This document shows positions 4,691-47,324 of a stretch of 64,000 nt of DNA, in pieces. The stretch comes from Oscillospiraceae bacterium. GTDB lineage: Bacteria > Bacillota > Clostridia > Monoglobales > WRAG01. Where the stretch lies: NCBI GenBank assembly GCA_009780345.1, contig WRAG01000004.1, positions 19,826 to 83,825 of the forward strand, read 5' to 3'. Under the pieces are notes generated by a model. The model made no database searches, was not told the origin of the DNA, and saw only the letters and a program-made list of their open reading frames with translations. Each line of letters starts with the position of its first letter. Position 1 is the stretch's first letter. A program made the translations under genes and the position numbers.

Positions 4691-5971
4691 TTGGCGAACA
4701 CTGGTGTGACGAATGCGGGAGCGGCGAATTTGGAAAACAAAGAATCGGTTTACATTGTGTCGGTTCAAGCGAAAGATTTATGGATTGCAAATAATTTGCT
4801 TGCCGATGAAGGAAAGTCGAAAATAAAAGGATATATAACAAGGGATAAAAAGGGGACGTTTTACAACAAATATATCGCAACTCTTGACTATTCTTTGGAT
4901 AGGATTCAATTGGAAAGAATATGCAATCAAGACGGTGTTCAATTTTCGTTCCCGAATCAAAAAAGCGAAAAACACAAACTGAAGCATTATTGCGACAAGG
5001 TAATTAGTGTTGATTTTGATTTAACCGTAAAAGATTATAATAAAAGCGGAGATGTTTTTGTCAAATATGGCTACTGTTACAACAAGGCGGATTACAAAAA
5101 AATAGACAAAAACGATTGTATTCATATAGAAAAAGACGAAAACGGAAACGATGCCTTGATAGGAATTAAGTTGAATACCAAAGTTAAAAATCCTCTATCC
5201 CTTGAAGAACTGAAAAGACTTGGTGAATATTTCACGCTCAAAGAAATTCAACCGAAAGAAAAAGAGGGTAAGAAAAAGGAAAAGCCGTATTTCGTATATA
5301 CCACAACGAACAAAGACTCGAAACGCTTGTATAATATCAAAGCCATCAGAGACGGACTTTATACAAAAGGGTTTGTTTGTAACGGAAGGACATATGTTAG
5401 GTGGAAAAGAAGTGCGGGGAAATCCCGTGTAGGAAAATGTCTTTTTATAGACAAGACGCTTTACAAAAAAATTCGCAAATGGGAACTGTGTGGATTAAAA
5501 GTCAAGGAAAATGACAAAATTGATTTAGCAGCTTTTGAGTCATATATTGCATTATCTAATTCCAGTATAATAGATACTTTGCACATTAAAAAGGAAAACA
5601 TTTTAATCATTCCCGAATATGAGAGCATCTTCAAAGAAAAGGTTATTGCCGTAGGCAAGGACAATAAAAAAAGACTTGTTGCGGAAGAAAAAACATTGGA
5701 AATAAAGAATAATATTTGGGATGGACAGAGTTTGATTGACCCATTGTTGATGAAACAATATAAGAAATACGGGAGTGTTTTGTTGAGAAACCGATTTTAT
5801 AAAAGTTGCGCCTTCACTTGTGATATTCAAAAATTCTTCAAGGATAAAGGCATTGCAGATGTCTCGCAACTTAACGGGTTCACATTGGCAACTGAAATCA
5901 AGGATATTAAATACATAACGACTGAAAGCAGTATAAAATATTCAAAGTTTGGAAGTAAAAAAAGTGGTTGA
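4691..5971 (+). CDS. YonO/RdRP-like two-barrel RNA polymerase, N-terminal part (first DPBB)
   Basis: TTG start after AAGGAGGA. Motifs KSRVGKCLF, IWDGQSLI and LLRNRFYKSCAF match my recollection of RdRP-family blocks (aRhGQcFS, sDGhGkIS, QIRxGGxKG). Very AT-rich. Confidence 0.6.
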   Translation: MANTGVTNAGAANLENKESVYIVSVQAKDLWIANNLLADEGKSKIKGYITRDKKGTFYNKYIATLDYSLDRIQLERICNQDGVQFSFPNQKSEKHKLKHYCDKVISVDFDLTVKDYNKSGDVFVKYGYCYNKADYKKIDKNDCIHIEKDENGNDALIGIKLNTKVKNPLSLEELKRLGEYFTLKEIQPKEKEGKKKEKPYFVYTTTNKDSKRLYNIKAIRDGLYTKGFVCNGRTYVRWKRSAGKSRVGKCLFIDKTLYKKIRKWELCGLKVKENDKIDLAAFESYIALSNSSIIDTLHIKKENILIIPEYESIFKEKVIAVGKDNKKRLVAEEKTLEIKNNIWDGQSLIDPLLMKQYKKYGSVLLRNRFYKSCAFTCDIQKFFKDKGIADVSQLNGFTLATEIKDIKYITTESSIKYSKFGSKKSG

Positions 5972-7827
5972 ATAATTTGGACAATAAGTTCGGAATCGTC
6001 AAGCACGATAAACCCGCAAAATACTTCGATGGGCGGTTTGTAAAATTAAATTATCAAATGTTAAATTCACTACAATCATATTACGACTTCAAGAAACCGA
6101 CTGAACAATTAGTGAGAAATGACGGAGATTTGGGCGAGCTTATGTTTCCTACTTGGGAATATTCGTTTGGATTATATCACGACCCAAAAGCTATAAAATA
6201 CCACGTCAATTTGAAAAACGAAATCGAGTATGATGATGTCGATTATGACACCGAAACCAAAAACGATTTGATATTCAAATTACTAAATATAAACGAAAAT
6301 TTCCCATTAAGTAACCTATATCACGAATTAAAGGTTGAGATTGTACGCGCATTTATAAACAGTATTAGAAAAGAAGGTAGGGTGATTGTCGAGGGAACAC
6401 ATGCCACCGTTTGTGCGAATCCTGTTGAAATGCTTTATCACTCTATAATGAAGAAAAACGGAAAAGGTAGTCAGTTTGATGGCACAAGCAAAATCGGCGT
6501 TGGTAATGTTTATTCCGAGCGGTTCAAGTTCGATAAAGTTATATTTGCCGGAAGAAGCCCGTTTATCACAATGGGAAATATATGGTTGCCGACCAATAAG
6601 GATAATTCCGAAATCAAGGAATACATGAACCCGACAGACCAAATATTATATTACAATGCCATAAACGAGAACAGTCAGCAACTAAATAATGGTATGGATA
6701 ATGACGGTGATGCCTGTTTAATTACAAACGACAGAGCGATGTTGGCGTTAGCCGGAAAACATTATGGTAAATTTTTAGTTCCGACAATGGACGAAAAAAG
6801 TATGGCGGCGGAAAACGAAATCTACCACTACACCGATTTAGACAAATCAAAATTGGATTCAAAAACCAAGGATAATTATATCGGCGAAATTGTAAATTTG
6901 AGCCAAGAGCTTAATAGTTGGTTGTGGCACAACCTCAACGAAAATCCCGAATACGACTACACACAACTTTACCTCGATATTTCACGCCTTGCGGTGTTGT
7001 CGGGGGCGGCTATTGATTCAGCCAAGAAAAATTTTGACATTAGTTTTGCGGCGGAAATAAAACGCATACGCAAGAGGAATGACGATTTAATCAAGGAAAC
7101 TAAACCCAAATTCTTCAAACACATTAAAATGCAAAGGAAGAAAAAGGCAGAGTTTTCACCCGATGAAATTGAAAAGTTCGAGGAACTTATTGAAGAATCG
7201 GAAGCTGACATCAAGAGTGGAAAAATATGTGTTCTTGATTATTTTGCCGAAAGCGACGAGGATATAGGCTTGATTAAACGTTTGGATAAATATATAAAGT
7301 TCTGCAACAAGAAAAATCCGTTTGAATATGTAAACACAACTATGGATTATATTGTAAGCATTACAAACAAGTTGAATTATGGATTGTCAAGAAACAACAA
7401 CGAAAATGTGTTACAAGTTAGGGATTTGATTGTTGACGTTGATTCACACAGCGTTGACAATGACGAAAAGAAAATCATTGAAAAAATATGCGAAGAAATT
7501 GAGAACGTTCGCAATGACATTGGGAAATTGTGGGGTATTAAGAAAAACAAGGAACGAGACCGGGCAGAACGGAAATTGCAAATCGAAAACAAGAAGGAAG
7601 AATTGATAACCTTCTGTAATACCCAAAAACTCAACCGCGATATATTGATTGGCTTGCTTGCAAAAATGGACGATAAACAAATATGTAGCAAGGGTAAGAA
7701 ATTGGGATTTTATTTTCAAATTTTACTCAACATTGAAGTCGATGGCATTGATGGCATAAATAAAATGATAGATTTTTTTGATTCACGACTTGCAAAAATG
7801 CCCGATTTTGCCCAAAACAACGCCTAA
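5968..7827 (+). CDS. YonO/RdRP-like two-barrel RNA polymerase, C-terminal part (catalytic DPBB, DNDGD)
   Basis: FVKLNYQMLNSL, GRSPFITMGNI and, ~45 aa later, MDNDGDACLITND (nt 6697-6711), matching RNPxxHPGD...DxDGD..hxWD of RdRP/YonO polymerases. The frame is -1 relative to the upstream ORF and open from 5959. Confidence 0.65.
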   Translation: MNNLDNKFGIVKHDKPAKYFDGRFVKLNYQMLNSLQSYYDFKKPTEQLVRNDGDLGELMFPTWEYSFGLYHDPKAIKYHVNLKNEIEYDDVDYDTETKNDLIFKLLNINENFPLSNLYHELKVEIVRAFINSIRKEGRVIVEGTHATVCANPVEMLYHSIMKKNGKGSQFDGTSKIGVGNVYSERFKFDKVIFAGRSPFITMGNIWLPTNKDNSEIKEYMNPTDQILYYNAINENSQQLNNGMDNDGDACLITNDRAMLALAGKHYGKFLVPTMDEKSMAAENEIYHYTDLDKSKLDSKTKDNYIGEIVNLSQELNSWLWHNLNENPEYDYTQLYLDISRLAVLSGAAIDSAKKNFDISFAAEIKRIRKRNDDLIKETKPKFFKHIKMQRKKKAEFSPDEIEKFEELIEESEADIKSGKICVLDYFAESDEDIGLIKRLDKYIKFCNKKNPFEYVNTTMDYIVSITNKLNYGLSRNNNENVLQVRDLIVDVDSHSVDNDEKKIIEKICEEIENVRNDIGKLWGIKKNKERDRAERKLQIENKKEELITFCNTQKLNRDILIGLLAKMDDKQICSKGKKLGFYFQILLNIEVDGIDGINKMIDFFDSRLAKMPDFAQNNA

Positions 7828-8275: not shown

Positions 8276-8872
8276 GTGAACAAAATGAAAAACGATATAT
8301 TTGAACGGATAAAAGAAGAAATCACGATTGAGGATATTTTTAATTATTATGGAATCGAGATAAACCGAAATCGCAAAGCGTTGTGTTGTTGGCACGATGA
8401 TAATTCACCGAGTATGTCCGTGAACTTGGTTGCTGGTTTATGGTATTGCCACGTCTGCTGCGAGGGCGGGGACATTTTCTCATTTGTCGCGCTGAAAGAG
8501 AGTTGCACACCGTATCAGGCGGCGCAAATCCTTGACGAGCGGCACGGGTTGGATTTGATAGCCACGACCACAAGACCGACTCGAAAACAAGTTAGCGACC
8601 ACCAAGCGAAAAAGGAAGCGTTGGCGCGATTCAAGGAAGATTTGCGGAGCGTTGAGAACAAGTTGAGCGACTACTTCCTCTTATTCCACCGAGCAACCAT
8701 TGACCCGCCGGACAACTTTGACGAAATGCCGCCGTTATATGAAATAGCATTGAAAGAGAGAAGTTATACCGAATATTTGCTTGACTTTTTAGCGTTTGGC
8801 AATTTCGAGGACCGGGCGCACGGCTACAAGATGGCGAAACAATATTTACAAAGATTGGAGGCGGCAATTTGA
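8276..8872 (+). CDS. CHC2 (DnaG-type) zinc-finger protein, replication initiation partner
   Basis: CCWHDDNSPSMSV..LWYCHVCCEGGDIFSF is the CHC2 primase zinc-finger pattern. The likely start is ATG at 8285. Confidence 0.7.
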   Translation: MNKMKNDIFERIKEEITIEDIFNYYGIEINRNRKALCCWHDDNSPSMSVNLVAGLWYCHVCCEGGDIFSFVALKESCTPYQAAQILDERHGLDLIATTTRPTRKQVSDHQAKKEALARFKEDLRSVENKLSDYFLLFHRATIDPPDNFDEMPPLYEIALKERSYTEYLLDFLAFGNFEDRAHGYKMAKQYLQRLEAAI

Positions 8873-10425: not shown

Positions 10426-10667
10426 GCACTTCACAGGCACATTGTTAGGCACATAAAACCCCATAATATCAAGGGTTAGGCACGAAAGGCACAACTTTTG
10501 TGAAATCCATTCCTATATATAGAACATATATACATTGGCGAAGTTCTTATATATATGATTCCCCATATAGGCGAATTAGAGAATTAAGTGCCTATGTGCC
10601 TAAACGCAGTTATATCAACATTTGTCGTGCCTAACGAAACGCCTAAATAGGCACTTGAAGTGCCTAA
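10422..10667. repeat. Putative origin of replication: TTAGGCAC iterons flanking an AT-rich unwinding region
   Basis: TTAGGCAC or (A)AGGCAC at 10422, 10435, 10445, 10476 and 10487. (TA)-rich block at 10510-10570. Inverted GTGCCTA(A) at 10588, 10596, 10627 and 10660, plus palindrome GCCTAAATAGGC at 10641. Confidence 0.6.
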
Positions 10668-10767
10668 ATCATCATTTTACTTGTTATCGGCGGCGGAAGC
10701 CGTCTTTTATTTTGCGTAATTGCGGATGTGGCGGTTTCGCCACCACCGACAAGAGGAGGAATTAAAA

Positions 10768-11013
10768 TTGAGTAGTCAATATTTCGTGAAAAGTTTTTAT
10801 GCGGCAAGCTACCTGAAGAGTCTTGGATATGAGCCGCAGATTGAAGTTTCACCACAGGGGCAAAGTGTATTTTGGTATGAGAGAACGCCGGGACTGGAAA
10901 ACTTGGTAAAGGAATTTTTCGATAACGAGGAATTGCAAGCGTTTGTTCGCGGGCAACTTGGATTGAAAAAGTTGATGTTTGAGGGCAACAAAACGCCCAC
11001 CGAGGAAACATAG
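10768..11013 (+). CDS. Small protein, member of a 3-copy paralog set (DUF5659-like by recollection)
   Basis: TTG start after AGGAGGA. SFYAASYLKSLGY...VFWYERT parallels LAGFLMLCGF...LVFYFTD (12276) and LAKFLVALDY...VVYSFHD (13283). Confidence 0.5.
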   Translation: MSSQYFVKSFYAASYLKSLGYEPQIEVSPQGQSVFWYERTPGLENLVKEFFDNEELQAFVRGQLGLKKLMFEGNKTPTEET

Positions 11014-11180
11014 GCACATCAAGGATTTGCGGACTTATATAAAATGGTATATTTTGCCGAAGAAAGCCTTGTGTATCAGGAGTTATCGGCAACTTTTCGA
11101 GCATTTCAACGATTTTCAAAAAATAAGGCGGGTGTGGAGCGAAAAGACATTATTTTCCGTTATTATCGGACAAAAAGGAC

Positions 11181-11449
11181 GTGGTTATTATGAAGCCACC
11201 TATAAATGTAACATTACGACAGCATCAATTAGAAGCATATTCGCAAGCATTACAAAATCGCAGGTTTGGGTTACTGCACGAAATGGGAACAGGGAAAACT
11301 CTAACGGCTATTGCCACGGCAGGGACACTACATCAGCAAGGGAAAGTAAACCGAGTGTTGGTTGTATGCCCGCCGCAAGCGGCACTATTGACGAAACAAT
11401 TATAAAAGCCCTGAAACGCAAGCACAATATGGCTGAAAGCGTTTTGTAG
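11181..11449 (+). pseudogene. SNF2-family helicase remnant (N- and C-termini only, internal deletion plus frameshift)
   Basis: LRQHQLEAY..LLHEMGTGKTLTAIA..RVLVVCP (SNF2 motifs I/Ia) stops at 11405. A second frame ends ..SGTIDETIIKALKRKHNMAESVL (SNF2 C-terminal tail). About 350-400 aa of core are missing. Confidence 0.65.
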
Positions 11450-19256: not shown

Positions 19257-20414
19257 ATGACAGAAGTTAAAGGAATCGTACAGGCTAAGAAGGGCAGACC
19301 CAACTATTACATCGTTTTGTATTACATTGACGAGACCACAGGGCAACCGAAAAGACCGTGGATTCCAACAGATATTCCGGTTGCCGGAAACAACAAGCGT
19401 AAAGCAAACGAAAAATTGAAGGAGGTTTTGGAAGAACACAACCGAAACAAGGTTGATTTGAGTAAAAATGTATTGTTTACGGTATTTATCAAGGAATGGT
19501 TGGAGTTTATGAAGCCGTCAATTGATATAGTCACATATGACGATTATAAACTGAAAATCTATAATCAAATCGTTCCGTTCTTCGAGCCGAAACAATTAAG
19601 AGTCCGGGACATAACGCCGTTACATATTCAACAATACATCAATCACAAACTCAAGTCCGTTTCGCCAAACACGGTGCGTAAGCATTTGTGGAATATATCA
19701 AAATGTCTTGATTCCGCCGTTAAGCAAAATTTGATTGCATTTAACCCCGTAAAAGCCATCGAAATGCCAAAACCCATTAAGTCCAACCGAGCGCAGTTTT
19801 ACAACGAACGGCAAATTGACGAACTTTTGTCCGTTATCAAGGGTGATTCAATCGAGGGAATTGTGTTGTTTGCGACCTTTTACGGTATGCGGAGAAGTGA
19901 GATATGTGGCTTGAAGTGGAACGCTATTGACTTTGAAAACAAGTCGTTTCAAATCAAGCACACAGTTGTTCAAATGGGAACGGCAATGCACAAGAAAGAC
20001 TCCACAAAAAATGACAGTTCTAATTCGTCAATGCCTATGCCCGACATTATCATTGATATGTTGAAGAAGTTGAAATCACGGCAAGCGCAAAATCGGTTGT
20101 TGCAACCCAACGACTATATTGACGAAGGTTATGTGTTTGTGCGAGATACGGGACAACTAATCCCGCCAAACTACATCACAAAGCACTTCAAAAAAGTCTT
20201 GGCGAGAAACAATATGCCTGTTATCAACTTTCACGATTTACGACACAGTTCGGCAAGCTACCTTCACTATTTGGGATTCTCTATGAAGGATATTCAAACT
20301 TGGTTAAGACACGGAGACATCGGGACAACTATGAATATCTACACGCACATAGATATGTCCGCGAAACGGAACATTGCAGACACTCTAAACGAGAGATTCC
20401 GAAAATTCAGTTAG
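19257..20414 (+). CDS. int: Tyrosine site-specific integrase
   Basis: N-terminal SAM-like core-binding region. Catalytic blocks YGMRRSEICGLKW and HDLRHSSASYL..LRHGDIGTTMNIYTH (R..HxxR..Y). Confidence 0.9.
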   Translation: MTEVKGIVQAKKGRPNYYIVLYYIDETTGQPKRPWIPTDIPVAGNNKRKANEKLKEVLEEHNRNKVDLSKNVLFTVFIKEWLEFMKPSIDIVTYDDYKLKIYNQIVPFFEPKQLRVRDITPLHIQQYINHKLKSVSPNTVRKHLWNISKCLDSAVKQNLIAFNPVKAIEMPKPIKSNRAQFYNERQIDELLSVIKGDSIEGIVLFATFYGMRRSEICGLKWNAIDFENKSFQIKHTVVQMGTAMHKKDSTKNDSSNSSMPMPDIIIDMLKKLKSRQAQNRLLQPNDYIDEGYVFVRDTGQLIPPNYITKHFKKVLARNNMPVINFHDLRHSSASYLHYLGFSMKDIQTWLRHGDIGTTMNIYTHIDMSAKRNIADTLNERFRKFS

Positions 20415-20526
20415 TCGATGTTTTTGTAGACGAAATTGTAGACATTACCAGTTATTAGGCGATTTTGAGGACTGCAACAAAAATGCTGACACACCGCAAA
20501 CGCAGATGTATCAGCACTTTCATTCT

Positions 20527-20600
20527 TGGAGGCACCACCCGGATTTGAACCGGGGATAAAGGAGTTGCAGTCCTCTGCCTTACCACTTGGCTATGGCGCC
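20527..20600 (-). tRNA. tRNA-Cys (GCA)
   Basis: Reverse complement is GGCGCCATAGCCAAGTGGTAAGGCAGAGGACTGCAACTCCTTTATCCCCGGTTCAAATCCGGGTGGTGCCTCCA. Cloverleaf with CTGCAAC anticodon loop, U73 discriminator and encoded CCA. Confidence 0.9.
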
Positions 20601-46565: not shown

Positions 46566-47324
46566 TTGGAGTTGTATCTTATTATGACTGAATGGTTTGC
46601 AAATTTGTCACATCATTTTTATCGAAATTTTATATATGACAACCGTTGGGAATGGTTGTTAGATGGTTTATGGGTTACGGTGCGGGTTTCAATTGCCGGT
46701 ATCATTTTGGGAATTATTTTAGGTTGCATTGTCGCGGCGATGAGATTGTCGAAAGTAAATATTTTCGGCAAGTATTTCGGTCTCGGGGGTATAGATAAAG
46801 TTATTAATAAAATTTTACGGATAATTTCTTATTTATACCTTGATATTGTCCGCGGAACGCCGTCGGTAACACAGATTTTCATTTGGTATTTTGTGTTTTT
46901 TGCGCCCACCAATGTTCCTCGAATCATCGTTGCCATTATTGCCATCGGTTTTAATAGCGGAGCGTATGTTGCCGAAATTATGCGGGCAGGCGTTTTGTCC
47001 ATTGATAAGGGACAAACAGAGGCAGGGCGGTCATTGGGACTAACTTCGTTTAGCACAATGGGGTTTATCGTAATGCCACAAGCGGTAAAAAATGTTTTAC
47101 CCGCATTGGTAAACGAGTTTATCGTACTTATAAAAGAAACTGCGATTATCAGTTTTATTGCCGTTCAAGATTTAAACAGAGCTGCTGTTGTTATAAGAGG
47201 GCGAACTTTTCACGCATGGATGCCGATAATAGCGGCGGCGGTTATATACTATATCATCATTAAAATACTTACAATATTTTTAAGAAGGTTAGAGAAAAAA
47301 ATCAGACAATCGGACGCGAGGTGA
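46566..47324 (+). CDS. Amino-acid ABC transporter permease (His/Glu/Gln/Arg family)
   Basis: [42 protein letters not shown] (EAA loop region). Confidence 0.85.

Follow-up and report, generated by a model that had tools for sequence, protein, structure and literature searches.

Transcription of the late genes in prophage SPbeta is carried out by a single-chain, DNA-dependent enzyme, the founder of the YonO-like branch of RNA polymerases (PMC5467207; PMC2919709). Besides the catalytic Asp triad, the invariant residues of two-barrel RNA polymerases are an R-x-P motif near the triad and two Lys and one Asp in the first barrel (PMC2919709), and YonO-like proteins have been discussed as models of the single-chain ancestor of the multi-subunit RNA polymerases (PMC5467207). 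A gene for a polymerase of this kind lies in a 64,000-nucleotide stretch of contig WRAG01000004.1 from an Oscillospiraceae bacterium (hereafter the window), where it is divided between two open reading frames (ORFs), ORF1 and ORF2, that meet at a run of seven A's. The split probably results from a recent one-base deletion in a YonO-like polymerase gene that is normally single-chain, leaving the gene either inactivated or expressed in traces by unprogrammed slippage.

Two described kinds of frameshifted gene resemble this junction. In the slippage-rescued frameshift 'pseudogenes' (Baranov et al., 2005; PMC1088944), as in the window, a one-base indel lies in an A-run of an otherwise intact ORF, and one A added to the mRNA would restore the frame. 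The documented rescues, however, occur at runs of about nine (sometimes eight), whereas the run in the window has seven, at which no more than trace rescue would be expected. The -1 sites of the dnaX and insertion sequence (IS) type, with the motif A_AAA_AAG (Sharma et al., 2014; PMC4066793), likewise place an A-run of Lys codons in an ORF overlap and shift in the -1 direction, but the window motif is out of register, has neither stimulators at 5-9 nt nor a Shine-Dalgarno element ~10 nt away, and is unconserved.

The Junction of the Two Reading Frames

The gene and its junction comprise the following features, with positions counted from the first nucleotide of the window.

4691-5971, plus strand: ORF1, 426 amino acids, TTG start, N-terminal part of the polymerase, ending ...IKYSKFGSKKSG before the stop
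5956-5958, plus strand: TAA stop in the ORF2 frame, upstream limit for any frame change (region 5959-5968)
5957-5963, plus strand: A7 homopolymer, the frameshift site, within GGAAGTAAAAAAAGTGGTTGA
5965-5967, plus strand: TGG codon of the conserved Trp426, in the ORF2 frame and upstream of the proposed TTG start
5968-7827, plus strand: ORF2, 619 amino acids, TTG start, C-terminal part of the polymerase, beginning NNLDNKFGIVKHD
5969-5971, plus strand: TGA stop of ORF1, formed by an out-of-frame reading of TTG AAT (Leu-Asn); overlaps the TTG (5968-5970) as TTGA

ORF2 is in the -1 frame relative to ORF1, a frame that is open from 5959 and closed upstream by the TAA at 5956-5958. The two reading frames overlap by 13 nt, which contain the A7 run, and the last three codons of ORF1 (AGT GGT TGA) are an out-of-frame reading. 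Insertion of one A in silico gives a single product of 1045 amino acids that reads ...SKFGSKKKWLNNLDNKFGIV... This product (the +1A fusion) crosses the junction free of gaps in an alignment of 30 sequences, with KFGS-KKK-WLNNLD against the consensus KFGS-LEQ-WLxxLE, and the spacing from KFGS to WL is exactly three residues both in the fusion and in the homologs. T410, T411, S414, K416, K419 and F420 are invariant upstream of the junction, and F434, G435, V437 and K438 downstream. W426, conserved at 90% or above, is contained in neither ORF1 nor the TTG-initiated ORF2.

Much of this had been foreseen in the original prediction, which was made from the DNA letters and a list of ORFs. Its coordinates for ORF1, ORF2 and the A7 run, and its -1 frame open from 5959, were confirmed on the sequence. 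Its expectation that one extra A or a -1 shift would restore a single protein of ~1040 amino acids agrees with the 1045 residues and the junction reading given above, and the block interrupted by the break is indeed a conserved one that is normally contiguous, with invariant residues on both sides in addition to W426.

The A7 run by itself is nothing unusual. There are 23 such runs on the plus strand of the window, and besides the one at the junction, intact ORFs contain 13 on the sense strand, of which ORF1 has three; A8 occurs in no ORF. It is the way the +1A fusion aligns with its homologs, free of gaps, that exceeds chance.

Homologs Cross the Junction in One Frame

At the DNA level, a set of 160 related loci was drawn from collections of viruses and genomes, and every one of them is read through the junction in a single frame, as are seven of seven annotated phage records. 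Because the full-length query was used to rank the 160 loci, broken genes were at a disadvantage. A second sample of 80 loci was ranked on the N-terminal half only and has no bias against downstream breaks; here 62 of the 80 are uninterrupted and none is broken at residues 415-435. At the protein level, all 119 non-self top matches of ORF2 are 858-1029 amino acids long, and no clade of stand-alone C-terminal halves occurs among them. In-frame A-runs are found at the junction position in a few of the relatives, L067 (TTA AAA AAA TGG, an A7) and L107 (KKK), and are read straight through. Homologs that are consistently two genes would have counted against the original prediction; they are consistently one. 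In-frame stops seen within the tblastn matches of some relatives were all upstream of the true start codons and were set aside.

Searches for closer relatives returned little. A metagenome scan with the fused protein found one distant relative only (38% identity), and the DNA pattern of the junction, with a variable A-run, had no match among viral contigs.

Comparison with these homologs shows that the gene was ancestrally continuous and places the lesion within 5957-5964. Because the codon for W426 stands in the ORF2 frame upstream of the TTG and the homologs are read in one frame, the split is best explained as a one-base deletion from A8 to A7. The ancestral state would have been A8, in which AAA AAA AAG encodes Lys-Lys-Lys. 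An intron was considered as the cause of the split and rejected, since the two halves have no additional sequence between them and the sole Rfam match in positions 1-21000 is a tRNA.

A YonO-Like Polymerase

Against 5.8 billion clustered proteins, the +1A fusion has 1915 matches, with top E-values down to 5e-204. The best 120 of these 1915 matches have 35-44% identity and cover 76-97% of the fusion, and 119 of the 120 are single proteins of 784-1037 amino acids, the other being ORF2 itself. Several top homologs carry precomputed PF05183 (RNA-dependent RNA polymerase, RdRP), and another record bears the name 'RNA-dependent RNA polymerase [Caudoviricetes]'. ORF1 matches PHROG 8308 over positions 3-330 of 847 (E 2e-39). 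A Pfam search of ORF1, ORF2 and the fusion gave no relevant match at E <= 1, PF05183 included, and a search of PDB with the sequence profile of the family gave no relevant solved structure.

The fold was approached with an AlphaFold model of the fusion, which has a predicted local distance difference test score (pLDDT) of 77.6 and a predicted template modelling score (pTM) of 0.74. In a Foldseek comparison of the model with PDB, the top 19 matches are all RDR2 (Arabidopsis, maize) or QDE-1 (Neurospora/Thielavia), with E-values of 3e-15 to 2e-10 over ~870-970 aligned columns and a probability of 1.0. The predicted fold and a DbDGD-type motif (DNDGD) are thus shared with these PF05183 proteins, but identity to them is 10-13%, the window protein has no Pfam match of its own, and it is bacterial and element-borne.

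Conserved residues are present in both halves. The catalytic Asp triad D670/D672/D674 (GMDNDGDA, 6697-6711) is in ORF2 and is invariant across the 30 aligned sequences. ORF2 corresponds to the second barrel and also contains the invariant R622-x-P624 (6553-6561) and the IGEIVNLSQ motif (6880-6906), while ORF1 corresponds to the first beta-rich (barrel) module, with D344 and an invariant basic cluster (R237/K239/R240/R246/K249). Judged by its sequence and its modelled structure, the fused protein is a YonO-like, cellular-RdRP-type two-barrel RNA polymerase. That ORF1 and ORF2 are the two halves of one such polymerase had been proposed in the original prediction, and their homology to full-length family members bears this out. 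By analogy with YonO, the polymerase is probably DNA-dependent.

The resemblance to YonO of B. subtilis SPbeta (PMC5467207; PMC2919709) includes a size of ~100 kDa, residence in a Firmicutes mobile element or prophage and the catalytic Asp triad; as with other YonO-like proteins, the relation to cellular RdRPs is through the two-barrel core only. Over residues 223-779, the fusion has a direct but weak match (23% identity) in an SPbeta-like Bacillus phage. YonO is a single chain, whereas the window copy is frameshifted into two ORFs, has very low identity to the Bacillus homolog and lies in an element of just ~24.6 kb in which no structural phage genes were recognised. A single polypeptide is characteristic of the YonO-like family; the relatives of the window copy are single polypeptides, and the window copy is split.

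A Probable One-Base Deletion and Its Likely Consequences

The proposed course of events begins with one gene, carried by a ~24.6-kb element at a tRNA-Cys of the Oscillospiraceae genome, which would have lost one A from its longest homopolymer (A8 to A7). Normal decoding would then yield the 426-residue N-terminal fragment that ends in ...SKKSG, and ORF2 would probably be poorly translated. A full-length product would make up a small fraction at most and would arise without any program, either by an extra A added in transcription or by a -1 slip of tRNA-Lys on U-AAA-AAA or A-AAA. Unstimulated A_AAA-type (Z_ZZN) tetramers give ~0.15% frameshifting against a background of ~0.11% (PMC4066793), and single-tRNA A-AAA slips give 0.3-1% (PMC1851650). 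By analogy with these E. coli measurements, the leak of full-length protein would be on the order of 1% or less, and the polymerase gene appears to be inactivated or strongly down-regulated. That no catalytic residue has been lost and that the two halves are open apart from the deletion points to a recent mutation. The original prediction had listed four alternatives without ranking them; the recent inactivating indel is the one favoured here, and a sequencing error, an evolved two-subunit enzyme and slippage are not.

Several points weigh against this reading or limit it. Both halves are fully open, every invariant catalytic residue is present and the attachment (att) repeats that bound the element are perfect, so that loss of function is likely but not proven. 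The TTGA overlap between ORF1 and ORF2 is of a style shared with real coupled gene pairs of the element. Independent lesions fall within ~12 residues of the same loop (three were counted, two of them in other lineages), which could mean that a split is tolerated there. The C-AAA-AAA site, at which efficient -1 frameshifting was obtained in an E. coli overexpression system (PMC1851650), shares its N-AAA-AAA form with the window site, so a leak above 1% is possible. The databases searched hold no relatives of 44%-99.9% identity with which the A-run could be compared within the lineage. Lastly, the window polymerase deviates from the family at 18.5% of the columns conserved at 90% or above (homologs average 3.5% and reach 11.2% at most), but this excess is confounded by the long, isolated branch of the lineage.

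A Possible Two-Chain Polymerase

The split may alternatively be tolerated. ORF2 would then be translated by termination-reinitiation at the TTGA, and the two products would form a non-covalent, active two-chain polymerase with a beta/beta-prime-like division. That the inter-barrel loop (fusion residues ~415-435) is a permissive break point and that the window polymerase works as two separately translated chains is improbable. The position of the break is in some respects suitable, as it divides the module with the basic cluster (ORF1) from the module with the R-x-P and DxDxD motifs (ORF2), and both halves are fully open. However, the break falls where helix 416-420 turns into helix 423-429, a part of the AlphaFold model that has high confidence (pLDDT ~85-91) and is not a flexible linker, and the conserved Trp426 would be absent from both chains.

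The translation signals argue in the same direction. The TTG of ORF1 (4691) has a strong Shine-Dalgarno sequence, AAGGAGG, 8 nt upstream. No GGAGG-type Shine-Dalgarno sequence precedes the TTG of ORF2 (5968), unlike most genes of the element. Overlaps of 4 nt, including a TTGA at 8869-8872, are indeed used by real coupled gene pairs of the element, but the starts in those pairs have GGAGG-type Shine-Dalgarno sequences.

Further support for a tolerated split could come from other lineages with lesions in the same loop. In a clone of another subfamily (L165), the sequence GACGAAAAAGCG, with an A5 run, is shifted -1 four residues before the conserved Trp (L165 ~4895-4915). In L174, a relative of L165, the corresponding sequence is GAC GAA AAA AGC, with an A6 run, and is in frame; the A6 of L174 against the frameshifted A5 of L165 is an event in a related lineage of the kind seen in the window. 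L174 itself has an in-frame TAA six residues past the Trp (1840-1880). The L165 clone (L165/L166/L167/L170/L171/L172) was recovered from at least six samples on contigs of up to 0.2-1 Mb, and its copies are ~100% identical, so that the ratio of nonsynonymous to synonymous substitution rates (dN/dS) carries no signal. L164 is an N-terminal remnant, and homology is lost at residues ~420 and ~431 in the tiny contigs L163 and L173, respectively. Across 41 short family members, the end-points of homology form a small cluster at fusion residues 416-430.

This clustering of lesions and end-points in the loop is an unexplained hint, not evidence of an evolved split. The loop lesions were found by seeking proteins that end near the junction and are subject to ascertainment bias; the numbers are small, and the other split lineage is a single clone with no evolutionary depth. 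No diverged clade carries the split. A genuine two-subunit enzyme as an evolved architecture, one of the options in the original prediction, is disfavoured by the absence of a Shine-Dalgarno sequence before ORF2, the loss of the Trp and the lack of split relatives.

Possible Programmed Recoding

A slightly less probable explanation is that the A7 run is an evolved recoding site, at which the host RNA polymerase adds an A or the ribosome shifts -1 on U-AAA-AAA, giving a set fraction of full-length polymerase alongside the 426-residue N-terminal product. The geometry fits, with the run placed inside the 13-nt overlap and a perfect alignment of the shifted product, and the N-AAA-AAA form has experimental -1 precedent in E. 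coli (PMC1851650). IS elements exploit A-runs for productive slippage, at lengths of 8-9 (PMC1088944), and a second lineage is likewise shifted -1 at an A-run in the same loop, although that run is an A5.

The signals that accompany known sites are missing. In the ORF1 frame the codons at the run are AGU AAA AAA AGU, which gives the heptamer U_AAA_AAA and not X_XXZ_ZZN, and the only cognate slip at the run is that of a single tRNA on the A_AAA tetramer. The structure predicted for the 100 nt downstream (-21.7 kcal/mol, z = -1.68, with 10 of 200 shuffles as good) is not significant, and its hairpin begins 1 nt past the run, compared with the 5-9 nt expected for stimulators. Upstream, the 84 nt examined have no structure (z = -0.06) and no hairpin, and no Shine-Dalgarno-like element is found ~10 nt before the run; the sole purine-rich stretch, GGAAG, ends 1 nt before it. 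For transcriptional slippage, A7 is shorter than the productive runs, which are typically of 9 and sometimes of 8 (PMC1088944). It is also below the lengths at which selection against slippage-prone runs is evident, typically ~9 nt and occasionally 8 (PMC1088944), and the 13 other sense-strand A7 runs lie in intact ORFs.

The comparative evidence is equally negative. Neither the motif nor the two-ORF layout is conserved at the junction in any of the 160 or any of the 80 related loci (~240 in all), and the in-frame A-runs of L067 and L107 at the junction position are read straight through. The junction site is probably not an evolved recoding signal, and programmed slippage or frameshifting, the option placed in the heading of the original prediction, has neither comparative nor signal-level support.

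Possible Phase Variation or Sequencing Error

The A7 run is identical in four assemblies from several samples, namely the window, L001, an ENA MEGAHIT contig (85.6 kb) and a Logan contig (run SRR10512952); L001, L254 and L255 all have it. Several assemblies thus show the lesion at the DNA level. Of these, L001 (JGI, sample 3300010369) is 99.983% identical to the window over 17.8 kb. It differs by three single-nucleotide polymorphisms, at 5607 (T in the window, A in L001), 13507 and 13516. The first of these is a non-conservative I306N change in ORF1, in a column where each of the 30 sequences has V, L or I.

Reversible phase variation, in which replication slippage within the population would switch the gene between A8 (on) and A7 (off), is very improbable. 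The lesion is in the longest homopolymer of the gene, for which A8 is the likely ancestral state, and the gene is otherwise intact, as are the att sites. Against it, all four assemblies have A7, and no full-length 1045-residue variant is found among the top matches from the 5.8 billion clustered proteins. Runs of 7-8 A are also short for high-frequency phase switching.

A sequencing or assembly error that hides a true A8 and one intact gene, as the original prediction had also considered, is just as doubtful: homopolymers are classic error sites and the fused reading is perfect, but an error is unlikely because the four assemblies agree on A7, one of them (JGI) from another sample with three polymorphisms, and the gene pairs of the 64-kb window include no other homopolymer-associated frameshift. 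One suspected case, at 47295, is a normal ABC permease gene beside an ATPase gene.

The Surrounding Mobile Element

The polymerase gene belongs to an element of ~24.6 kb that is bounded by 45-bp direct repeats of the 3' end of tRNA-Cys, with chromosomal genes beyond. Its right end in the window is marked by two features.

19257-20414, plus strand: tyrosine integrase at the right end of the element (Pfam PF00589, PHROG 1)
20526-20570, unstranded: right att repeat of 45 bp, overlapping the 3' part of tRNA-Cys (20527-20600, minus strand)

The left att copy is perfect and lies 24,569 bp leftward, at L254 1267-1311, which is 4.0 kb beyond the left edge of the window. Other products of the element are a serine resolvase, an FtsK-like protein, a helix-turn-helix (HTH) regulator, a primase zinc-ribbon protein, a DUF5906 primase/helicase and a DNA methyltransferase. 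Immediately beyond the left repeat is another tyrosine integrase gene (L254 17-1183), a sign that elements may stand in tandem at this tRNA-Cys site.

A 24,597-bp JGI contig was considered as an excised, circular form of the element (att-to-att distance 24,569 bp) and rejected, as the integrase there precedes the chromosomal EamA and glucanotransferase genes. Another contig of the element (L258, a Logan contig of SRR5215140, 23,631 bp) ends 141 nt past the integrase stop, inside the 45-bp att repeat. A branch of the assembly graph at att would produce such an end, and excised or empty-site forms may coexist in that sample.

Gene calls in part of the element conflict: positions 10664-11119 on the minus strand (151 amino acids) and 10720-11013 on the plus strand (an 81-residue gene) are called in the annotations of different assemblies. 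The plus-strand call at 10720-11013 is the more credible and has a Pfam DUF5659 match (3e-8). Nearby, a 74-residue ORF (11181-11402, plus strand) has matches to the ResIII/SNF2/DEAD helicase domains over their first ~64 positions alone (the motif I region) and is enclosed by a larger ORF of a different frame (10979-11449). The 74-residue ORF is probably the remnant of a helicase gene, which suggests that the element has lost sequence. This remnant, the I306N change and the excess of deviations at conserved columns of the polymerase are hints of decay.

Inserts in Viral Homologs

In the sample ranked on the N-terminal half, 18 of the 80 viral homolog loci are interrupted. Nearly all of these have inserts of 0.3-1.4 kb placed exactly within the DxDxD codons (fusion residues 670-672) and/or inside IGEIVNLSQ (734/735). 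Loci with inserts are L175, L176, L182, L186, L197, L198, L204 and L208, and further L210-L212, L216, L223, L224, L234 and L249; for instance, inserts occupy 5812-6124 and 6303-7679 in L175 and 7020-7389 in L182. Rfam identifies a group I intron at the 734/735 site of L182 (71.8 bits), and the inserts at the catalytic site have no Rfam match at the gathering threshold. The short proteins P0132, P0142, P0148, P0165, P0181 and P0186, six in all and from other lineages, stop at the first Asp of the catalytic triad.

Implications for the Element and the Family

As a recent deletion, the split would be an ordinary event, in which a mobile-element gene has been knocked out or turned down by the loss of a base from a homopolymer. 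For annotation, it would mean that the two 'hypothetical proteins' MCL2837759/60 would be described as one frameshifted YonO-like RNA polymerase gene. The inserts found in about one fifth of the viral homologs, at least one of them a group I intron, may interest specialists more than the frameshift does. If the polymerase did work as two chains, the frameshift of L165-172 and the stop of L174 would be further examples of a break in the inter-barrel loop, and an active split enzyme would bear on the possible origin of the division between beta and beta-prime.

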